Shown here in pieces: positions 7,508 to 29,219 of a stretch of DNA of 32,000 bases. How positions within the stretch are numbered: the first letter of the stretch is position 1; every line of letters starts with the position of its first letter. The position numbers were made by a program, and so were the translations under genes. This stretch comes from Methanopyrus kandleri AV19. GTDB taxonomy: Archaea; JAADCQ01; Methanopyri; Methanopyrales; Methanopyraceae. The stretch lies in NCBI RefSeq assembly GCF_000007185.1, contig NC_003551.1, positions 1,560,001 to 1,592,000 of the forward strand. Reading direction: 5' to 3'. The notes under the pieces are model-generated. The model made no database searches, was not told the origin of the DNA, and saw only the letters and a list, made by a program, of their open reading frames with translations.

Positions 7508-8744
7508 GGTTCGTCCCCCTCGGGAGCGCTGGCACAATCGGTACCAAGGGAATCTTCCTTCGTTTTGAGGACGTTGGGGACGCCTGGCTGTTCGCCTCGG
7601 ACTCGTTCTCCTTAGGCTCAACCTCTCCCTCGGCGTTCGAAACCTTAGGTTGTGTGGGCTGGTTCTGGGTTTCGGCCCCGTTCGAATTGGTCGGTTGTGC
7701 GATCTCAACCGCGGTAATTGGTACGGAAAGTATCCGCAGTACGTGAGTACCCACCAGCGGTACCTCCAGCACCTGTCCCTGATAAGCTAGCCACGCGAAC
7801 GGTTCCTTCACCACGCACATCACTGGAACGCCAGCCTCAGCCAGATGTCGACAGATCTCCAGCACGTCGGATAACGTGGAAGCCAGAAACACGTAGAACC
7901 GCACCTTCAACCCGCCACCGACGTCAACGGTCCTCTCCCCCTGGAAGAACTCGTCGAGCCCGGGTGGTAGCTTTCCGTCGGTTGGGATCGGGAAGAACAG
8001 CACGGGCATGGTGGAGGAGTACTGCTCCAGCGGGTTGAAGACGTCCTGGATAGCCCGCGATATGTTCAGCTCCAGTGAGTAAGCGGGCACCAGGTAGTAG
8101 TCGTGCTTCCAGTCGTAGTCCGGTCCCTGAGTCGCGGAGCAATCTTTCACGACGAAGTAGCGTCCGTTGCTCGTCGCACCCATGACCACGACGGCGTGCA
8201 TCATAGGTGGCACGACGACGAACCACCTCGATACCGTGACTAGCGGGGCGTAGAGCACCACTCCGATGGCGTTGGGGTGCTCGGGGTCCGCCGCCAGCGA
8301 GATCAGCGCTGGGAACCACGGTGGGTCCGTGGAGGCGTTGGGAGCATCGTATTGGGGATCCTCGACCGGGATGTTCGTGGTCTTAGCGAACCATTCCTCG
8401 CGCTTCTCGAGGTCTTCCGGGGTCAACTCGTTGCCTGCGATGGGCTTCCACCAACCTTTAGCTACGGCTACGTTGTACAGGGTTAGGGATGCGAGCTCAC
8501 CGCACCACATGTGATCCGGTATCCCGTCCCCATCCACGTCTCTACCGAAGTCGACCTGGTCGTAGTCGGGTTCGGGAACGAGGAAGTGCACCGTTTGGGG
8601 TTTCGAGAACTTAGCCTTGATCACCCCTTCAGCCGTTTTGATGTTGATCGCGGTGAGTTCCCACGTGTACTCCTGTACACTGATGGCATGTGCCGCTCCT
8701 CCCAGCACCATGATAAAGGCCAGGATGGAGAAGGGCCGAAGCAT
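7473..8744 (-). CDS. secreted protein with putative papain-fold (peptidase C39-like) cysteine peptidase core and low-complexity C-terminal tail
   Basis: Signal peptide MLRPFSILAFIMVLGGAAHA. Candidate catalytic Cys in HMWCGELASLTLYNV and His in PPMMHAVVVMGATSNGRYFVVKD, about 100 residues apart as in C39-like peptidases. T/N/Q/E-rich linker near the C-terminus. ATG 8744 has GGGGTGG 5 nt upstream. Confidence 0.6.
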   Translation of the reverse strand: MLRPFSILAFIMVLGGAAHAISVQEYTWELTAINIKTAEGVIKAKFSKPQTVHFLVPEPDYDQVDFGRDVDGDGIPDHMWCGELASLTLYNVAVAKGWWKPIAGNELTPEDLEKREEWFAKTTNIPVEDPQYDAPNASTDPPWFPALISLAADPEHPNAIGVVLYAPLVTVSRWFVVVPPMMHAVVVMGATSNGRYFVVKDCSATQGPDYDWKHDYYLVPAYSLELNISRAIQDVFNPLEQYSSTMPVLFFPIPTDGKLPPGLDEFFQGERTVDVGGGLKVRFYVFLASTLSDVLEICRHLAEAGVPVMCVVKEPFAWLAYQGQVLEVPLVGTHVLRILSVPITAVEIAQPTNSNGAETQNQPTQPKVSNAEGEVEPKENESEANSQASPTSSKRRKIPLVPIVPALPRGTNRGRDSDGQVEG

Positions 8745-16907: not shown

Positions 16908-16941
16908 CCCGAGCCCTGATAGTCACGCGTCAACGTGATCC

Positions 16942-16949
16942 TTTTTAGC
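16942..16949. promoter_or_regulatory. single A/T box (TTTTTAGC) in the divergent spacer between the oxidoreductase and CAP-domain genes
   Basis: The only A/T block in the 72-nt spacer. It lies ~35 nt upstream of TTG 16980 (plus) and ~38 nt upstream of TTG 16907 (minus). Confidence 0.35.
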
Positions 16950-16979
16950 AGCTCCCTTTCCCAGTATGAGGGGATAGAG

Positions 16980-17945
16980 TTGCCGACTTGGAGGTACGTA
17001 CCCCCGGTTCTACTCGCCATACTGTTATCATCGGCCTCACCCGTTGCAGCAGGCGTTGCTGAGATGTTTCACTCGGAAATCAACGAATTTAGGGAGTCAT
17101 TGGGGTTATCTCCGCTGAAATGGAGCCCGAGTTTGGCGAGGCTGGCCGAGCAGCACGCGGCGAGAATGGATGAGACCAACGAATTGTACCACGAGCGTTG
17201 TCAGGGGTATAACTTCGAGAACGTGGCGCGTGTTCCGAACACGGGAGAACCTACCCTAACGGCCAGGTTGCTCGCAATAACCGTGCTTTCCAGCCCTCCA
17301 CATCGATGGAACGTTCTGGAAGGGAATTGTGAGGGCGTCGGTGTGTCGATCTCGGGAGATTACGCGGTGCTCTCTCAGAAGATATCACGCGCTTCCGACG
17401 ACGCCGTAGACGTCCGGGTGGAGGTACCGCCGTTTCATGGTGTAGTATCGACGGCGCACCGCGATGATGTGGAGAAAGCTGTATTGGATGCTATCAACCG
17501 AGAGCGCGAGCAGTCAGGACTCCCTCCTCTAGTTCTGGACAAGGAACTCTCGAAGCGAGTCCTCGAAGAGCTCCGTGAGGCCGCCAGAACACTGTCGGTG
17601 ACTTGCTCGTCGGGGACGCTGGTGATACTGACACGGTTACAGAACCCCGTGGAGATCGCCGAGGATGTGCTCGGGGTACTTCGCGCCGTACCTGCCGGTC
17701 GTAACTTCTGGGTTCCGAAAGGTCGCTTAGGGGTAGCCGCTCTCGAAGTTACCGAGGTGACCATGCCGGATGGGAATCGCCTGAAGCTCGGAGTGGTGTG
17801 GGTGGGAATAAACGTCGTCGAAGAAATGGCGGGGAAGAACCGCCCCAGGCGAGTCCCATTCCCATCGTACGTTGCCATCGCGATCCCTCTGTGCTATCTC
17901 ATCACCCGCCGTCAAACGTTCTTTACCGGTCGACCGCAGCGCTAG
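16980..17945 (+). CDS. secreted/membrane-anchored CAP (SCP/PR-1-like) domain protein
   Basis: TTG 16980, with GAGGGGA 5 nt upstream, gives the signal peptide (M)PTWRYVPPVLLAILLSSASPVAAG. CAP signature EINEFRESLGLSPLKWSPSLARLAEQHAARM...H, plus a second partial copy LDAINREREQSGLPPLVLDKELSKRV. C-terminal TM anchor YVAIAIPLCYLITRR. Confidence 0.7.
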   Translation: MPTWRYVPPVLLAILLSSASPVAAGVAEMFHSEINEFRESLGLSPLKWSPSLARLAEQHAARMDETNELYHERCQGYNFENVARVPNTGEPTLTARLLAITVLSSPPHRWNVLEGNCEGVGVSISGDYAVLSQKISRASDDAVDVRVEVPPFHGVVSTAHRDDVEKAVLDAINREREQSGLPPLVLDKELSKRVLEELREAARTLSVTCSSGTLVILTRLQNPVEIAEDVLGVLRAVPAGRNFWVPKGRLGVAALEVTEVTMPDGNRLKLGVVWVGINVVEEMAGKNRPRRVPFPSYVAIAIPLCYLITRRQTFFTGRPQR

Positions 17946-17959
17946 TGAGGGGCACCGCG

Positions 17960-20194
17960 GTGAAGAGACGCATCAATGTCGCGATCGCCGGTCACGTGGA
18001 CCACGGTAAATCCTCGCTGCTCGAGCGTATCACCGGGGAGTTTCCTGACAAGGAGGAGTTCGAACTCAGCCGTGGAATCACCGCGGTCATGAAGGTGATA
18101 CCGACGGAATGGAAAGGTGTAGAGATACGCTTCATTGACACGCCGGGACACTCGGACTTCAGGGAGGAAGTGGGTAAGGCGCTGTTAGTGTCGGACGGCT
18201 TAGTGCTCGTGGTGGCGGCCGACGACGGCGTGCAGGCCAGGACGGAGGTCATCATCGAGGAGGCGAATGAGCTCGGGCTGCCAGTGGTCCTAGCGGTGAA
18301 CAAGATGGACAAGGAGGGGGCGGACTTCGAGCGGGTAGTCAAAGAAGTCAAAGAACGAGGGCTTGAACCCGTGACTGCCGTCCCCACCTCAGCCAAAACG
18401 GGTGAGGGAATCGAGGACTTACTGGACGCTATCGTGGAACACATCGAACCGCGCGGATGGGGAGACCCAGACGAGGGGACGGCTTTCCTCGTCGTCGACG
18501 TCGGGGAACGGGAAGGACTCGGTTCGGTAGCTACCGGCGTGGTACGTGCGGGTACTCTGAAACCCGGGGACGAGCTCCGATACGAGGGGGAGGTCTACAG
18601 GATTCGGGCCCTCCTTTCTCCGGACGAGAAACGAGTGCGAGAGGCTCGGCCGGGTGACGTGGTGCTGGCCGCGATGGACCGTGCGCCGGAAGCGGGAGTC
18701 CTTCTCACGGAGACAGGAGGGTACAGGGTCGAGAACCCCGAGGACGTGCGCCCTTGCGTCCGGTACACGGTCGAGGTAGACGACCTGAGGAAGGCCCGGG
18801 AGGTACTCGAAGACATAGAAAGGCGGAATCTCGGGGTCGAAACCGAGATCATCGACGAACGCCGCGTTAAGATCTCGTGTCTCGGTGACGTACAGTTCGA
18901 CAAGATCCGCTCGGAGCTCGAGGAAGCGGGAATCCAGGTGGAGGTTACGTCCAGGGAGTTCGAGGGAGTGAAAACCGTCGGTGGAAGGGCGGTGGGTCGC
19001 TTCGGTCCGGTCGAGGTCGAGGTGCTCCCAAGGGCCTCTGAGGGTGTTCGAGTGTTCAAGCGGGGTAAGGATCGTGCCACCACGAAGGAGGTCACTACGG
19101 CCCATCTAGTCGCGGAGGAGCTCGGACTGGACGGACTCGTCGTGAACATACTTTCCGAGGGCGAATCCCCTCCCGAAGCCCTGGCGGAGGCGATCGCGGC
19201 GGCGATTGAAGAGGCCGGGATCTTCGAACTGTACCCCATCGAGAACGTCCTTATCGAGGTAGACAACGTCGGGAAGGCCGCCTCCTTGGTGTACAAGCAC
19301 GAGGGGCAAGTCATCGAATCGGACGAGTCCTCGATCAAGGCGATAGTGCCTGCGCCACGGCTCAACGAGCTCGTGAGCGATCTCATGACGGAGACGTCGG
19401 GACGGGCCAGAATACGATTGCTCTCGTCCGCAGGTGCGGGCGGCCCGATACTGTCCGTAGATCCGGGCGAGGTGAACTTCGGGATCGCGTACATCCCCAG
19501 GAGAGGTCCTTGTGACGTCACCTCCGTCAAGCTGACCGGGCACACCCGTGACGCCAAGGTGGAAGAGCTGAGACGTACACTGAAGATGTTCCTAGCGGAC
19601 CGAGAAGAACCGAACCTCGTGTACGTCGGCAACGGACCCGGTCACGACGTGGCTGTCGAGGCCTTAGGGGACGTGCTCCCCGAGGCCGAGATCGTGTTAG
19701 TCGACGAGCGTGAGACAACGAAGGAAGCCGTGTACAGGTTATCGTCGGGTAAGCTTGAGAACGTCCGATCCAGGGACCTCCGAGATCACGGAGTGGCGGC
19801 GCTCGCGATCGCACGTCGCGGACAACTTGGTCGTAGGGTGAAGAAGCGCGTGGATCGTGAGGGGGTCAGACGGGCCGTCGTCACGGCTTTTGGAGGCGGC
19901 TCTCGAAGGTTCGGCGACTACTCCAGACTGCCAATACGCAATCCGGAGGAGTTGGAAGAAGGGACGATGCTACAAGTTAAGGACCCTAACGCCATCACGA
20001 CGGGGTTATCGAAAGGCGAAGTAGTCGTGTTCCACGGTTGGAGGGAAGATGGAGGGATGATCGCGTCGACGTTAACCGGGAATCGAGTGATCATCAAGCC
20101 GCGAGACGGACGGTCGCTGAAGAATCCACGTCGATTCTTCGAGGTGTTCAGGCCGGTGAAGCCGAAACGAAGCTCGCGGAGAGGAGAGGGGTGA
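17960..20194 (+). CDS. EF-G/EF-2-like translational GTPase fused to a YqgF/RuvX-like RNase H-fold nuclease domain and a C-terminal domain of unknown function
   Basis: G1 AGHVDHGKS, G2 RGIT, G3 DTPGH, G4 NKMD, G5 SAK. Domain II is GTAFLVVDV...GTLKPGD, followed by EF-G-like domains III-V. From ~19445: ILSVDPGEVNFGIAY...LVYVGNGPG...IVLVDERETTKEA...RDHGVAALAIARRG (YqgF pattern). GTG 17960 has GAGGGG 7 nt upstream; GTG 17945 is an alternative. Confidence 0.85.
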   Translation: MKRRINVAIAGHVDHGKSSLLERITGEFPDKEEFELSRGITAVMKVIPTEWKGVEIRFIDTPGHSDFREEVGKALLVSDGLVLVVAADDGVQARTEVIIEEANELGLPVVLAVNKMDKEGADFERVVKEVKERGLEPVTAVPTSAKTGEGIEDLLDAIVEHIEPRGWGDPDEGTAFLVVDVGEREGLGSVATGVVRAGTLKPGDELRYEGEVYRIRALLSPDEKRVREARPGDVVLAAMDRAPEAGVLLTETGGYRVENPEDVRPCVRYTVEVDDLRKAREVLEDIERRNLGVETEIIDERRVKISCLGDVQFDKIRSELEEAGIQVEVTSREFEGVKTVGGRAVGRFGPVEVEVLPRASEGVRVFKRGKDRATTKEVTTAHLVAEELGLDGLVVNILSEGESPPEALAEAIAAAIEEAGIFELYPIENVLIEVDNVGKAASLVYKHEGQVIESDESSIKAIVPAPRLNELVSDLMTETSGRARIRLLSSAGAGGPILSVDPGEVNFGIAYIPRRGPCDVTSVKLTGHTRDAKVEELRRTLKMFLADREEPNLVYVGNGPGHDVAVEALGDVLPEAEIVLVDERETTKEAVYRLSSGKLENVRSRDLRDHGVAALAIARRGQLGRRVKKRVDREGVRRAVVTAFGGGSRRFGDYSRLPIRNPEELEEGTMLQVKDPNAITTGLSKGEVVVFHGWREDGGMIASTLTGNRVIIKPRDGRSLKNPRRFFEVFRPVKPKRSSRRGEG

Positions 20195-20200
20195 GCCGAC

Positions 20201-20878
20201 GTGCTGGCGTTGTTCCCTCTGGCGCATCCGTTCACGATCACCTCTGAAGACCTCCGGAGCGTCTGGCGTTGGATCAAGACACCGGACGTTATACGAGTGT
20301 ACACCGACAGCGAGTCGCTAGCCGAGCTGCTGAAACGGCCGTTACTCAGGGCCGTCCGCTCCTCACTCCGACCGCCTACGGTCTCGTGGACGGGTCCTTG
20401 CCCGGAAGAGGACCTTCGAAGAGCTGGTGCCGAGGTAGAGATGGACGAACATCGACCGTTTGAAACCTCGGACGTCCTCGCACTGTGTACACGAACGTTC
20501 GCGCTCTTCCTGAAAGGTGTCCGGGGAGGCGCCGTAGGGTTGGTGGGGTTTGGGGACCTCGACGATCTTCACCGTTACCTGGTCGAACTAGGGTATCCGC
20601 GCACGTTCAAGGCGACGTCCACGCTCATGTTACGTCGCCGAGAAGTGGAGATGGATGAACTATGGAAACTGTTCCCGGCGTGGGCGGGGGATGATGTCGA
20701 ACCACTGCTCCGAGAGACCCTGAAGCCCGACGTCGTGGAGGACCTCCTGGAGGAAGCGAGGTCTCTGACGTCCTCGCTGGGACCGCGGGTCCGAGACCTA
20801 GAGAGCACCCCTACCGGACGCCTGCTACTAGCATCCTCTCAGACCGTGTGGGTCGTGAAGGGGGCGCTGAACGAGTGA
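20201..20878 (+). CDS. hypothetical protein (225 aa)
   Basis: GTG 20201 lies 6 nt after the GTPase stop, with GGAGAGGGGTGA upstream. Its stop overlaps the dut start (GTGA). No recognisable motif. Operon partner of the GTPase-nuclease fusion. Confidence 0.55.
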   Translation: MLALFPLAHPFTITSEDLRSVWRWIKTPDVIRVYTDSESLAELLKRPLLRAVRSSLRPPTVSWTGPCPEEDLRRAGAEVEMDEHRPFETSDVLALCTRTFALFLKGVRGGAVGLVGFGDLDDLHRYLVELGYPRTFKATSTLMLRRREVEMDELWKLFPAWAGDDVEPLLRETLKPDVVEDLLEEARSLTSSLGPRVRDLESTPTGRLLLASSQTVWVVKGALNE

Positions 20879-21339
20879 TCTTGGGAGAGTACGTACTTCG
20901 GGATCTATTCCCCGACTTGGACGAGGACCAGTACCAGCCGGCCGGCATCGATCTCAAGCTGGATAGAGTTTTCCGCCTCGAGGGCCGGGGGGCTCTGTTG
21001 GAGGGCGACGATAAGCGGCTGCCGGAGTACCGCGAGGTCGAAACCGAAGGTGGAGTATTCGAGCTCGAACCGAACGTCCCTTACGTACTCGAACTGGCGC
21101 CCGAGCTCGAGATTCCCGAGGATACTGCCGTCTTATTCCTCCCGCGGTCTACCCTGTTGAGATCCGGTGTTTCCGTGCACACGGCCCTCGGCGATCCGGG
21201 TTTCAGGGGCAAGATCAGGGTCCTCGCCGTCAACCACCACGCGGCACCGTACCGGATAGCCCATGGAGAACGAGTCGTTCAGGCCGTGTTCCTCCGGGCG
21301 GAAGACGCGGGTCGGTACGAGGGGGACTACGGCCGATGA
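20875..21339 (+). CDS. dut: archaeal-type dUTPase (dCTP deaminase/dUTPase family, short form)
   Basis: About 154 aa with QPAGIDLKL, PRSTLLRSG, GDPGFRG and the C-terminal YEGDYG(R) typical of the family. GTG 20875 overlaps the upstream stop. Confidence 0.85.
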   Translation: MILGEYVLRDLFPDLDEDQYQPAGIDLKLDRVFRLEGRGALLEGDDKRLPEYREVETEGGVFELEPNVPYVLELAPELEIPEDTAVLFLPRSTLLRSGVSVHTALGDPGFRGKIRVLAVNHHAAPYRIAHGERVVQAVFLRAEDAGRYEGDYGR

Positions 21340-21887
21340 CAGTGGTAGTGGTCGTGCGGAAAGGTAGACTCGTCCGATCAGCGTCCGGCGGCGTGCTAGA
21401 GGCCGACTCGTCGTCTACTCTTATCCTCACGGAGGAGATGAACCTGTTGGTGGACACCGGAGGTGAGGATCCGAAAGGATTGATCCGCGATCTCGAGCCG
21501 TACGGCGTCGACGCCGTCGTCTTCACCCACGGACATCAGGATCACGTAGGCAACGCCCGGGCGATCGCCGAGACGTTCCACCCGGAGTTCTACGCGCACG
21601 AGAGGGAGGCCGGATCGATCCCCGTCGATGTGGATCCCGTCGACTCGTTCGACCCGCCCGAAGGTGTCGAGGTCATCGAGACCCCGGGTCATACCCCCGG
21701 CCATATATCCGTAGTCGTGGAGGACCGGATCGTGATCGCCGGGGACGCGTGTCCAACTCCGGATAACGCGTTGGAACGCGTACCGCCGGCGATCAGTTGG
21801 GACCGCGAACTCGCGGAGGAGTCCCTCAGGAAGGTTCTGTCATATCCGGTGGTGATACCGGGACACGGAATACACCTGAAACGCTAG
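21336..21887 (+). CDS. MBL-fold metallo-hydrolase
   Basis: THGHQDHVGN (HxHxDH), ETPGHTPGH, and the late GHG. ATG 21336 overlaps the dut stop (ATGA). Confidence 0.8.
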   Translation: MTVVVVVRKGRLVRSASGGVLEADSSSTLILTEEMNLLVDTGGEDPKGLIRDLEPYGVDAVVFTHGHQDHVGNARAIAETFHPEFYAHEREAGSIPVDVDPVDSFDPPEGVEVIETPGHTPGHISVVVEDRIVIAGDACPTPDNALERVPPAISWDRELAEESLRKVLSYPVVIPGHGIHLKR

Positions 21888-24184: not shown

Positions 24185-25531
24185 TCACTCTTTGTACACT
24201 CCCAACCACCTGAACGCCCCTTCACCGTCGATAAAACCCGCCAATATCGTATCCTTAGTTATAGCAACTTGTAGGGTGCCACTCAAGTCTGAGATAACCG
24301 GAAGGCCAATTATAGGCACATTCTCACCATTAACTTTAACTTCCACCGGTATTGGACTTACCCGTAAAGTAACCGTCTCCATACCTGTATACAAAGGTTT
24401 ATATACAGGTTTATCCGAAGCGCTCACAATTATTCTGCCCTCCTCATCGATATTGGCCTCTATTCCTTTAATGGGATTTTCAATATCCCCTAATTTTAGA
24501 GGAGGAGTACCATCGGACTCAGCTACTACACTACACCCATTCTCTGTAACCTCACATTTAATCGAAGCAAGATCCTTAAGGATAGAATATAGTATCTTTT
24601 TATTATTCCCTGGAAGCTGAATCTCCATCATTCCTACGATAGCTAGTCTATATTTATTCGGCACAATATCTTCGAAATCAAAATCGTTTACTCGAACCTT
24701 CCGCACTGACCCCCATTTACGTTTAATTACGTCCCAACGTCTAACATTAATGTACTCATTTTCTAACTTAATTTCAAATATTCCATTATCACTATCATAC
24801 AGTAAGATTCTATCCTCTAAGTTTATTATAGTCCAATCCCCATCATCACTAATTACTACCACACTACCGAAAGTTTCAATATTACGTGTTTTCAAACACC
24901 CGTCGTAATAACACCATAACTTAATTTTCCCATGAATGAATGTATCAACCACCCTAATATTTACAACAATATCACCAGGTACATCACCAGTAACCTTCAT
25001 CAGAACTTTACCATTTACTAGTAACTTATTATTCCTAACTTCAATATCGATAGTATCGTTATTCGAAAATTTAAATGCCAAGGTCTTTGTCGTGACTTTA
25101 TCCCCTTCAGGAAGTTTAATATTATCAACAAGAACCTTATATTTTAAATGTTTTGAACTTATACTAGCCAATGGAACGTTAGTGCCCAAACCTTTATTAA
25201 CGATTTCCTCAATTATAAAATGTTCAGATTTTATCTTATTTATTTTCAAATCGAACCCAATCTCAATACTTACCTCGTACAGTCCTTCAGAGGCGGTTAA
25301 GGCAATTTTATCGTTCCTTTTAAACTCGTATGTTTCAGTAGTCGTCTCTGATTTAGCATTTATTAACACTTTGTTTTCAGTTGGAACAATCCTTATCGTA
25401 TCCCCGATGTTTAACTTACTTAAGATCAAACGATCGTTCAGCTTTAGACTCCGATTGGCAACCTTAATTCGTACGATGTTCGCAGAAGTGTGAACTTCTA
25501 AGGGATCGTCGTATGATATATTTGTAATCAT
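24185..25531 (-). CDS. orphan 448-aa beta-rich protein encoded in a low-GC island (function unknown)
   Basis: An uninterrupted 448-codon ORF in 30-45% GC DNA, where random ORFs should be short. Asn/Lys/Ile-rich. No signal peptide, TM segment or known motif, and no SD. TATA-like CTAAATAG lies 24-33 nt upstream of ATG 25531. Confidence 0.75.
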   Translation of the reverse strand: MITNISYDDPLEVHTSANIVRIKVANRSLKLNDRLILSKLNIGDTIRIVPTENKVLINAKSETTTETYEFKRNDKIALTASEGLYEVSIEIGFDLKINKIKSEHFIIEEIVNKGLGTNVPLASISSKHLKYKVLVDNIKLPEGDKVTTKTLAFKFSNNDTIDIEVRNNKLLVNGKVLMKVTGDVPGDIVVNIRVVDTFIHGKIKLWCYYDGCLKTRNIETFGSVVVISDDGDWTIINLEDRILLYDSDNGIFEIKLENEYINVRRWDVIKRKWGSVRKVRVNDFDFEDIVPNKYRLAIVGMMEIQLPGNNKKILYSILKDLASIKCEVTENGCSVVAESDGTPPLKLGDIENPIKGIEANIDEEGRIIVSASDKPVYKPLYTGMETVTLRVSPIPVEVKVNGENVPIIGLPVISDLSGTLQVAITKDTILAGFIDGEGAFRWLGVYKE

Positions 25532-27923: not shown

Positions 27924-29219
27924 TCACGCCTCGACTCGGGCCACGAAGAAACCGTCGGTATCGTGGCGATGTGGCCAGATCCTGCGGGCCTCCGGCATCC
28001 TTACACCGGGTGAAGCCCATTCCAGAGGAACATCCACGAGCTCGAGACCCCGGTAGCGCCGGACGAGACGTTCGATCAGGCGCTCGTTCTCGGTGAGCGT
28101 GATCGAACACGTGGAGTACACTATCCTGCCGCCCGGCTTCAGCAGCCTCACGGCGACCTTCAGGAGCTCCCACTGGAGCTGGGCCCACTTGGTCGGCTCG
28201 CCGGTTGTCTCCCGATCCCACCTCTTCTCGGGCTTGGAATAGACGGACCCCGTACCCGTGCACGGCGGGTCGACGAGGACTAAGTCCGCAATCCCCTCAC
28301 CCAGCTGATCGGGCGCGTCGCGTGCGTCCATGCACAGTGTTTCCACGATGTCGTCCGCGTGGAACTGCCTGACCCGCTTCTTCAGTGTTCCGAACCTCTT
28401 CGGGTGCATGTCGATTGCGATGATCTCCCCACGGCCTTCCATCAGCTGGGCTAGATGGGTGGTTTTCCCACCCGGAGCTGCACACAAGTCGACGACGGTC
28501 ATCCCCGGCTCAGGCTCGGCGGCGTGGGCGACGGCTGCGGAGGCCTTCGTCTGAGGGTACACTTCACCCTTCTTGAACTCCGGGGTCTTGATGACCGGTG
28601 TCTCGGCGGATCTTATGCGGAGGACATCGGGGACGTCCGGGTCCCGTTCTGCTTCGATCCCCCTTCGCTTCAACCGTCTCACGACTTCTTCAGGGTCGGA
28701 CACTAAGGTATTGACACGAACGTACCGGGCAGGTCTCCGGTTGCAGGCTTCCAGGAACTTGCGCAACTCGTCCATGCTGTCGAAGGCCGAGCGCACGAGC
28801 TCCACGTACCACTTGGGGAAGTTATAGCGGGCCGCGAAGCGGGCCGTAGGGTCCCTAATGGAACTGATGACTTCCTCGGGGTTCACACGCTCCACCTGTC
28901 TGAGGATGGCGTTGGCGAAACGGGCGTGCTTGGGTCCGACACGCTCCTTGACGACGTCCACTACGGCCTTAGTGACGGGCCCCGGATGCTCACGGCGCCA
29001 GTGGATCTCCCACGTGCCTACTCGTAGGGCGTTGCGGAGGTACGGGTGAAGGTCCTCGACCGTGGAACCCCGGAGTACTCTGTTGAGAACTAGGTCCACA
29101 TTACCCAGAACTCGCACGAGCTCGTGGGCTAATGCTTGAACGAATCTATGCCTACGCCCGCCTATGCCGCGAAGGGCGTTACGGAGGGCGGCTTTGAGCG
29201 AGTGGCCCCGCTCTTCCAT
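27924..29219 (-). CDS. RNA cytosine-C5 methyltransferase, NOL1/NOP2/Sun (RsmB-like) family
   Basis: SAM motif VVDLCAAPGGKTTHL, motif IV DPPCTGTG, motif VI YSTCS, and an N-terminal NusB-like region. Ends with tandem stops TGATGA. Confidence 0.9.
   Translation of the reverse strand: MEERGHSLKAALRNALRGIGGRRHRFVQALAHELVRVLGNVDLVLNRVLRGSTVEDLHPYLRNALRVGTWEIHWRREHPGPVTKAVVDVVKERVGPKHARFANAILRQVERVNPEEVISSIRDPTARFAARYNFPKWYVELVRSAFDSMDELRKFLEACNRRPARYVRVNTLVSDPEEVVRRLKRRGIEAERDPDVPDVLRIRSAETPVIKTPEFKKGEVYPQTKASAAVAHAAEPEPGMTVVDLCAAPGGKTTHLAQLMEGRGEIIAIDMHPKRFGTLKKRVRQFHADDIVETLCMDARDAPDQLGEGIADLVLVDPPCTGTGSVYSKPEKRWDRETTGEPTKWAQLQWELLKVAVRLLKPGGRIVYSTCSITLTENERLIERLVRRYRGLELVDVPLEWASPGVRMPEARRIWPHRHDTDGFFVARVEA

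Follow-up and report, generated by a model that had tools for sequence, protein, structure and literature searches.

Endonucleolytic cleavage of RNA on the ribosome is performed, in some known systems, by a nuclease working together with a GTPase, such as Nob1 with eIF5B in the 3'-end maturation of 18S ribosomal RNA (rRNA), and Cue2 or NONU-1 with Hbs1/Dom34. To our knowledge, the endonucleases that act on ribosomes are in all of the characterised systems separate from the GTPases reading the state of the ribosome, and little is known in archaea about those involved in final rRNA trimming, no-go decay and ribosome inactivation. In bacteria, the fusion of a YacP-like NYN RNase to Tet ribosomal-protection proteins has been reported in ten Clostridiales species (Atkinson 2015, PMC4342817). 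The same census recognised 57 subfamilies of translational GTPases (trGTPases), of which seven are listed as archaeal, and its text makes no mention of YqgF, of RuvX or of any archaeal factor with a fused nuclease (PMC4342817). Here, we describe a gene of Methanopyrus kandleri AV19 whose product joins, in a single polypeptide, a trGTPase and a nuclease domain of the YqgF/RuvX type. The gene lies in a stretch of 32,000 nucleotides (nt) of the chromosome (contig NC_003551.1, positions 1,560,001 to 1,592,000 of the forward strand), which was analysed as a whole and is referred to as the window; unless another locus is named, coordinates are those of the window. This trGTPase variant with a fused YqgF nuclease is rare, conserved and, in the literature searched, undescribed: the full texts contained no description of the protein or of archaeal YqgF-GTPase fusions, in agreement with a first-pass annotation of the window, which did not recognise the architecture as that of a described family.

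The whole gene (17960..20194, +) was delimited from the list of open reading frames (ORFs) and by exact-sequence look-up, and its product of 744 amino acids (aa) is identical to AAM02777.1 / WP_011019932.1 / UniProt Q8TV36 of M. kandleri AV19. A GTG start codon at 17960 is located 7 nt 3' of the Shine-Dalgarno-like GTGAGGGG, read directly in the sequence (17945..17952, +), and the start position of the protein agrees with that of all its homologues. The frame then proceeds unbroken for 744 codons to the stop at 20192-20194, so that the single complete ORF of the first-pass annotation stands, and neither a stop nor a shift is present at 19400-19450, the junction of the two halves, where a frameshift or an assembly join was to be looked for. 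The present database names for this fusion are misleading. Q8TV36 is called 'Translation initiation factor 2, GTPase' in UniProt and 'GTP-binding protein' in RefSeq, and one partial member of the family carries the automatic label 'Holliday junction resolvase RuvX' / 'RuvX, partial'. In supplementary file 2 of the 2015 census, M. kandleri AV19 is credited with a bacterial-type 'IF2' and a 'SelB' beyond the usual archaeal set (PMC4342817); this 'IF2' is probably the fusion protein, assigned to the wrong subfamily on account of its G domain, since IF-2 is the model against which the fusion protein scores best.

The membership of the family was established by an exhaustive HMMER search of 1.84 billion representatives, which returned 16 hits. 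Full-length proteins account for six of these, as clusters at 50% identity (P0002, P0005, P0121-P0124), and the other ten comprise five clusters of fragments, one spurious repeat protein and four ordinary RuvX-like proteins. The full-length members recovered are 735-782 aa long and all share the same domain order. According to the source names, one group belongs to Methanopyrus, Methanopyraceae and Methanopyri (72-96% identity), and the other consists of metagenome-assembled genomes (MAGs) of Asgard archaea labelled Odinarchaeota, Ca. Asgardarchaeum/Asgardarchaeia and Lokiarchaeota, whose proteins are 28-34% identical to the query. A scan of genome contigs with the P-loop pattern AGHVDHGK found at least two true loci (L002 and L003) among the matches listed. 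No true split forms were present among the hits of the exhaustive search, and the short hits P0125, P0126, P0128, P0129 and P0134, considered as candidates for this role, were rejected as fragments from short contigs or as clusters that also hold full-length members. The comparison of fused and split forms that had been suggested at the outset gave, in this way, the fusion only, in Methanopyri and in some Asgard archaea. An artefact of assembly or a frameshift at the junction was also rejected, given the intact frame and the occurrence of the fusion in many independent assemblies from two archaeal phyla; the fusion of GTPase and YqgF is confirmed as real. The gene is chromosomal, and the Methanopyrus genomes and MAGs that were recovered contain it; no eukaryotic homologue of the fusion was found.

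The first 165 residues form the G domain (17960..18454, +), recognised by the positions of the G1-G5 motifs and by Pfam GTP_EFTU, which matches residues 2-163 above threshold with an expect (E) value of 1.6e-41. All of the five motifs are located where they had first been placed, namely AGHVDHGKS at residues 10-18, RGIT at 38-41, DTPGH at 60-64, NKMD at 114-117 and SAK at 144-146, and the catalytic histidine of DTPGH, His64, is encoded at 18149-18151. In trGTPases it is the sarcin-ricin loop, in the rRNA of the large subunit, that activates the histidine of the DxPGH motif. The G1 core, T41 of G2, DxPGH of G3, K-x-D of G4 and S-x-K of G5 are invariant in the members from Methanopyri and Asgard archaea, and the first residue of G4 is Asn in Methanopyri (NKxD) and Thr in the Asgard members (TKxD). 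The G domain is directly followed by the beta-barrel of domain II (residues about 175-250; 18482..18709, +), a prediction borne out by Pfam EF-G_D2 on residues 185-246 (E 3.5e-7, 30.7 bits against a cut-off of 27 bits) and accompanied by a match to GTP_EFTU_D2 (E 1.5e-4); this region has low confidence in the full-length AlphaFold2 (AF2) model. Judged by the G1-G5 motifs and by a domain II placed immediately behind them, the protein belongs to the trGTPases.

In searches of NCBIfam and of PDB sequences, bacterial IF2, LepA, Tet, TypA, SelB and EF-G rank highest, over the G domain and domain II only; the best scores are those of NCBIfam IF-2 (E 4.6e-43), PDB LepA (1.7e-30) and PDB IF2 (2.9e-30), and the alignments to IF2 and LepA extend to residue ~250, through domain II. 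The archaeal factors aEF-2 and aIF5B score much lower than the bacterial ones. The G' and G'' inserts appear to be absent, as the length of the G domain suggests, because it spans ~165 residues and aligns to the insert-free G domains of IF2 and LepA. Orthology to EF-G, aEF-2 or IF2 was considered and rejected: TIGR00487 (IF-2) reaches 147.8 bits against a cut-off of 424 and covers residues 7-247 only, TIGR00484 (EF-G) 89.4 bits against 659 and TIGR00490 (aEF-2) 55.7 bits against 738, both in the G domain only, and the IF-2 domain PF11987, present in every IF2 hit, was not found in any member of the fusion family. The initial description of the protein as 'EF-G/EF-2-like' is therefore retained for its architecture and abandoned as a statement of orthology, because the scores come nowhere near the cut-offs set by NCBIfam for EF-G, aEF-2 and IF-2, and the G domain and domain II are nearest to bacterial IF2 and LepA.

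The architecture is that of an abbreviated EF-G-type body, and the protein is a translational GTPase equipped with such a body. A profile of residues 252-492 from ten diverse family members, compared with the PDB, matches archaeal EF-2 (6q2d_C, E 2.8e-5) and then TetM, eEF2, Snu114 and RF3, and in all of these the match falls on domain III. Together with the model, it defines a domain III-like ferredoxin fold at residues 263-340 (18746..18979, +), in which CLGDVQFD is the counterpart of GMGELHLE of EF-2 and the AF2 model displays the order beta-alpha-beta-beta-alpha-beta. The following abbreviated domain IV-like module (residues 341-425; 18980..19234, +), modelled as beta-beta-beta-alpha-beta-alpha-beta at residues 344-423, is the least secure of the assignments, suggested by the topology of the model, a non-significant hhalign comparison and Foldseek of the whole model. 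The domain V-like ferredoxin fold (residues 426-490; 19235..19429, +) is a weak assignment, consistent across the members: it contains the motif T479-x-G481-x-A483, is again beta-alpha-beta-beta-alpha-beta in the model at residues 430-490, is collinear with EF-G in hhalign, and is matched by Pfam EFG_C in four of ten members with E 0.0012-0.011, the window protein standing at 0.011, below threshold. SBDS_C also matches four members out of ten in this region. In hhalign with the single sequence of E. coli EF-G, the body is collinear with EF-G 424-681 (domains III-V) with the expected motifs paired, at a probability of 0.5%. The full-length AF2 model has a predicted local distance difference test (pLDDT) score of 63; when it was searched against the PDB with Foldseek, 47 of the best 50 matches were EF-G/EF-2 and three were LepA, in alignments of ~680 columns whose template modelling (TM) scores are only 0.2-0.3, because the packing of the domains in the full-length model is unreliable. 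The claim that segments resembling domains III, IV and V are present has, in consequence, an uneven outcome, being significant for III, weak for V and, for IV, dependent on model topology and on Foldseek matches of low TM-score.

Beyond domain V the same frame enters a YqgF/RuvX-type domain of RNase H fold (residues 496-625; 19445..19834, +). This assignment is strong, with concordant indications from hhalign, Pfam, the model, Foldseek and conservation. The window protein alone matches Pfam RuvX with E 0.0029 and 21.2 bits, below the gathering score of 29.2 bits; with the C-terminal 257 residues scanned by themselves, RuvX is matched in five members out of five (best E 1.1e-7), along with minor matches to Tex_YqgF and RRXRR, both of which are RNase H-fold families. 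The best PDB match of the C-terminal profile is YrrK/YqgF of B. subtilis (1vhx), aligned over its whole length with E 0.099. As for the four ordinary RuvX-like proteins retrieved by the HMMER search (~145-151 aa), three match Pfam RuvX, one of them with 1.3e-31, and hhalign pairs the family alignment with them at 98.9% (E 3.5e-17) over 127 columns, which is the whole RuvX domain. An AF2 model of residues 488-744, obtained from a 12-sequence alignment (pLDDT 74.5), places the nuclease core in the order beta-beta-beta-alpha-beta-alpha-beta-alpha, with five strands and pLDDT 86-93. With this model, Foldseek finds RuvC (E 1e-5), including RuvC on a Holliday junction, the C-terminal endonuclease half of UvrC, retroviral integrases, RuvX 7ess (E 3e-4, 22-23% identity) and the RuvC domains of IsrB and IS621. 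The modelling and structure search that had been proposed for this segment have, therefore, returned an RNase H topology with RuvC and RuvX 7ess among the matches, and the original reading of the segment as YqgF/RuvX holds, with the hhalign score, the fold of the model and an intact acidic triad in its favour. Members of the Loki type (775-782 aa) have an insert of ~30 aa ahead of beta5 in this domain.

In YqgF proteins the active site consists of an Asp on beta1, a Glu at the C-terminal end of beta5 (on beta4 in RuvC) and an Asp on alpha3 (PMC9601230, PMC3985635). The acidic residues of the fusion protein sit exactly at these positions: D501 (19460-19462, +) on beta1, D582-E583 (19703-19708, +) with E583 at the C-terminal end of beta5, and D609-H610 (19784-19789, +) with D609 on alpha3. 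The four nuclease motifs are present as PILSVDPGEVNFGIAY, LVYVGNGPG, VLVDERETTKEA and RDHGVAALAIARRG, and beta4 is followed by VGNGPG with no acidic residue. D501, G557/G559/G561, D582-E583 and D609-H610 do not vary among 10-12 sequences which are 28-46% identical between clades. We consider the nuclease domain as probably active and of YqgF type, rather than a relic similar to that of Tex/Spt6, because acids of the YqgF type are invariant between such distant clades. That the domain might bind RNA as a scaffold devoid of catalysis, like its counterparts in Tex and Spt6, in a ribosome-binding GTPase of biogenesis or stress that performs no cleavage, is very improbable. It is true that the YqgF domain is inactive in Tex and Spt6, that a functional active site in YqgF was doubted in an earlier survey of structures (PMC3985635), and that only three carboxylates are found in YqgF (PMC9601230); however, in the fusion these three carboxylates, D582 and H610 are unchanged across clades whose proteins are 28-33% identical, and Tex, unlike the fusion, is devoid of the third carboxylate (PMC3985635). 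Moreover, YqgF of D. radiodurans is an Mn2+-dependent RNase whose catalytic mutants lose their activity (E106A and D122A) or have it impaired (D22A) (PMC9601230).

The origin of the domain is touched by a separate observation. The nearest stand-alone RuvX-like proteins (P0130-P0133) share with the fusion the motif variant IDPG...VG(D/N)G(T/P)G...VDE..T(S)QEA, and canonical RuvX, exemplified by E. coli YqgF, has the motif GLP. On this resemblance of motifs, P0130-P0133 may mark the bacterial subgroup that donated the nuclease domain.

The nuclease is followed by a linker (residues 626-665; 19835..19954, +), which comprises one helix and a low-confidence segment (pLDDT <50 at residues 142-169 of the C-terminal model) and is poorly conserved. 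The protein ends with a small beta-barrel (residues 666-735; 19955..20164, +) known from the model, where ~70 aa form five strands and one helix with pLDDT 84-88; its conserved positions are F691, L705-x-G707 and P732-x-K734. An additional C-terminal domain had been noticed and left unassigned, and this remains an accurate description, as single-sequence scans of the barrel with Pfam and NCBIfam gave no match. The Foldseek alignments to retroviral integrases span both the nuclease and the barrel, with about 235-280 columns for the 257-residue query, and from their length one may take a hint that the barrel is SH3-like. In the PDB the best match of the barrel profile is E. coli IF1, with E 0.21 over nearly the whole length of IF1, and hhalign against IF1 gives 42% with the single sequence and 21% with a profile of 54 distinct metagenomic IF1 sequences; an oligonucleotide/oligosaccharide-binding (OB) fold is at odds with the place that the model gives to the helix.

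The first-pass annotation had suggested a factor that delivers a nuclease to the ribosome for rRNA maturation, mRNA surveillance or ribosome rescue, which is plausible from the identity of the domains. On this basis, we propose as a general model, with a probability of roughly one half, that the protein is an endoribonuclease which docks on the ribosome and is gated by GTP. The body made of the G domain and domains II, III, IV and V would bind, when loaded with GTP, the factor site of the ribosome like EF-G, LepA and BipA, and His64 would be activated by the sarcin-ricin loop. The nuclease and the barrel would then be placed on the A-site/intersubunit side, because the nuclease comes after domain V, a position which in LepA and BipA is occupied by their additional C-terminal domains. 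From that side, the YqgF domain would cut a ribosome-bound RNA in a metal-dependent manner, and the hydrolysis of GTP would release the factor from the ribosome. As for the target, YqgF of E. coli reportedly processed pre-16S rRNA solely in 70S ribosomes (PMC9601230), and by analogy we have a slight preference for an rRNA precursor, trimmed or checked for quality in a particle whose subunits have joined; the mRNA of stalled ribosomes comes second. More tentatively, such a protein may represent a previously unrecognised class of archaeal translation factors, that of a self-contained nuclease-delivering trGTPase cutting pre-rRNA, mRNA or tRNA under the control of GTP. Behind this model, the other explanations are ordered as surveillance of mRNA or tRNA, an off-ribosome junction nuclease, the non-catalytic scaffold discussed above and a toxin or defence effector.

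The same domains would also serve an all-in-one factor of no-go decay or ribosome rescue, in which the body recognises a stalled ribosome whose factor site is accessible, YqgF cuts the mRNA or the tRNA, and decay and recycling begin. We regard this as unlikely, even though several observations speak for it: a domain IV-like module, the part which in EF-G reaches the decoding site, is kept; the weak IF1-like signal of the tail would suit docking in the A site; and we know of no endonuclease identified in archaea for the cleavage of mRNA on stalled ribosomes. On the other hand, the similarity to IF1 is non-significant, no surveillance genes are linked to the fusion in the loci examined, and a nuclease attached after domain V, and not after IV, should be, extrapolating from EF-G, nearer to the stalk base of the 50S subunit than to the mRNA channel.

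Several considerations weigh against the proposed ribosome-docking endoribonuclease. The module of domain IV and the relative placement of the domains come from models of low confidence, with predicted TM (pTM) scores of 0.40 and 0.50; a distribution as narrow as this one speaks against a core step in the biogenesis of ribosomes; and the gene neighbourhoods, unconserved between clades, offer no functional lead valid for the whole family. In addition, not all of the EF2 family works on the ribosome, Snu114 and CysN being the exceptions (PMC4342817), and some YqgF proteins, those named RuvX/YqgF of M. tuberculosis, M. smegmatis and H. pylori, cut branched DNA (PMC9601230, PMC11466669). It is on these last two points that one could build a nuclease of DNA or RNA junctions, similar to RuvX in resolution or repair, acting off the ribosome and switched by a co-opted GTPase of EF2 type, as Snu114 is in the spliceosome. 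The nearest structural matches, which include UvrC and RuvC on a Holliday junction, would be in line with this function, as would the automatic name 'Holliday junction resolvase RuvX' of one partial member and a DNA ligase gene found two genes upstream in the Asgard locus L084. It is, nevertheless, quite improbable: the ligase is a neighbour in one lineage only, the glutamate on beta4 typical of RuvC is missing, YqgF of D. radiodurans is an RNase without resolvase activity (PMC9601230), and the histidine of DxPGH is conserved together with the III-IV-V body, a combination typical of factors activated by the ribosome.

The least probable explanation, a toxin or defence effector which upon infection or stress would put ribosomes out of action through cuts in tRNA or in rRNA, the latter for instance close to the GTPase centre, finds some room in the same geometry, as a nuclease after domain V might sit near the sarcin-ricin loop and the stalk base, and in the patchy distribution, confined to Methanopyri and part of the Asgard archaea, for which horizontal transfer could be responsible. 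PADLOC, however, reported for the fusion protein only LeoA, a generic match of the G domain (residues 4-126, E 2.2e-10), and nothing for its neighbours, and viral contigs contained no relatives of the protein; a defensive or viral origin was rejected on these grounds. Furthermore, the gene is syntenic within Methanopyri and its neighbours are housekeeping genes, with no conserved partner resembling an antitoxin.

In AV19 the fusion gene is tightly packed between a CAP-domain gene (16935-17945) on one side and, on the other, a 225-aa orphan ORF (20201-20878) followed by a dut/dcd-like gene and a metallo-beta-lactamase (MBL)-fold gene (20848..21887, +), the last two identified by Pfam, NCBIfam and their synteny with the Methanopyri MAG L002 in tblastn. 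In L002 (79% identity) the order is an oxidoreductase gene on the opposite strand (-), the fusion gene, dut and the MBL gene, and the CAP gene and the 225-aa ORF were not found in the syntenic region. The 225-aa protein has no family match, and its cluster at 90% identity holds only sequences that are nameless or named after M. kandleri. According to tblastn with L002, the synteny of the neighbours within Methanopyri is limited to dut and the MBL gene, and the Asgard loci have no neighbour in common with that of M. kandleri. The gene order proposed as a 'tight operon' is correct in the window; its conservation is not upheld, the CAP gene and the 225-aa ORF being missing in L002 and all of the neighbours in the Asgard loci, and we have rejected the inference of a conserved operon, since the neighbours differ among M. 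kandleri, the Methanopyri MAG and the Asgard archaea.

Some recurrent neighbours were observed within the Asgard clades. Three loci of Odin/Asgardarchaeia type contain, within about 1.2 kb 3' of the GTPase-YqgF gene, a protein of ~95 aa without a Pfam family (L086 8305-8604, +; L084 9363-9659, +; L001 11198-11479, -), whose sequences are 41-46% identical with E 1e-18 to 1e-24; either a partnership or just residual synteny could account for its recurrence. In the loci of Loki type, a dual-specificity phosphatase (DSPc) is encoded directly 5' of the fusion gene and a Zn-ribbon protein of ~120 aa, 52% identical between loci, 3' of it (7526-7918 and 10435-10788 in L003; 5525-5980 and 8901-9266 in L082). 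An RNA m5C methyltransferase of RsmB/F type is found 3-8 kb from the fusion gene in M. kandleri (window 27924-29219, -) and in two Asgard loci (L001 3200-4634; L086 1-1271), with a NusB domain in M. kandleri and a PUA partner in the Asgard loci, a proximity that could be due to chance. Elsewhere in the window, the segment 24000-26000 has a GC content of 0.42-0.43 against ~0.60 in the rest, includes a 447-aa ORF without a Pfam match (24185-25531, -) and may be a foreign island in the chromosome of M. kandleri. A single tRNA-Tyr(GTA) at 286-363 is the sole RNA family found in the window.

Should the proposed model be true, a nuclease-delivering GTPase would provide Methanopyri and several Asgard lineages with a ribosome-associated endonuclease of a kind new to all of the domains of life. 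A natural fusion between an EF-G-like GTPase and an apparently active YqgF would also offer a single, easily purified protein for testing the GTP-gated cleavage of RNA on the ribosome. For the YqgF/RuvX family itself, whose function has long been in question, a permanent link to a GTPase of the translation type favours a role on the ribosome or on RNA over one at Holliday junctions. Finally, as the fusion is present in Asgard archaea, it is of interest for those who survey the translation apparatus among the relatives of eukaryotes.

How far the protein resembles known systems depends on the part which is compared. EF-G and aEF-2 have the same order of domains (G, II and III, with a weakly assigned V and a putative IV in the fusion) and are its best structural matches over the whole model; domain III is detectable by sequence (2.8e-5 with archaeal EF-2), and domain V carries T-x-G-x-A with weak EFG_C similarity. 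They differ in size, since the body of the fusion measures only ~490 residues against roughly 700 or more, with an abbreviated domain IV, whose tip loop is shortened, and ~250 extra residues at the C-terminus. The G domain and domain II, instead, score best against bacterial IF2 and LepA, although the C-terminal PF11987 of IF2 is absent. With LepA and BipA the fusion has in common an apparently minimal G domain and an extra domain after domain V (PMC4342817), but it possesses a putative domain IV-like module, missing from both, and its C-terminal extension is a nuclease and not the C-terminal domain (CTD) of LepA/BipA. In the second half, the likeness is to RuvX/YqgF (PF03652), a family that goes under the names of 'putative pre-16S rRNA nuclease' and 'Holliday junction resolvase RuvX': an RNase H-like fold, the YqgF triad, no glutamate on beta4, and the motifs DPG...G.A, VG.G.G, VDE..T..EA and D..AA..I. 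In bacteria this is a single-domain protein of ~140 aa, whereas here the domain is part of archaeal proteins of 735-782 aa. The Tet-NYN proteins, described by bioinformatics, are the sole precedent found for a trGTPase of the EF2 family covalently joined to a predicted RNase; they are bacterial and uncharacterised, belong to another GTPase subfamily and carry a NYN/PIN-like fold instead of an RNase H-like one. With eIF5B/Nob1, Hbs1/Cue2 and E. coli YqgF acting on 70S ribosomes the analogy is functional only, and lies in the cutting of RNA on ribosomes, with a translational GTPase reading or setting their state; in the two eukaryotic pairs GTPase and nuclease are separate polypeptides, the nucleases have PIN or SMR folds, and no homology with the fusion of M. 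kandleri is implied.

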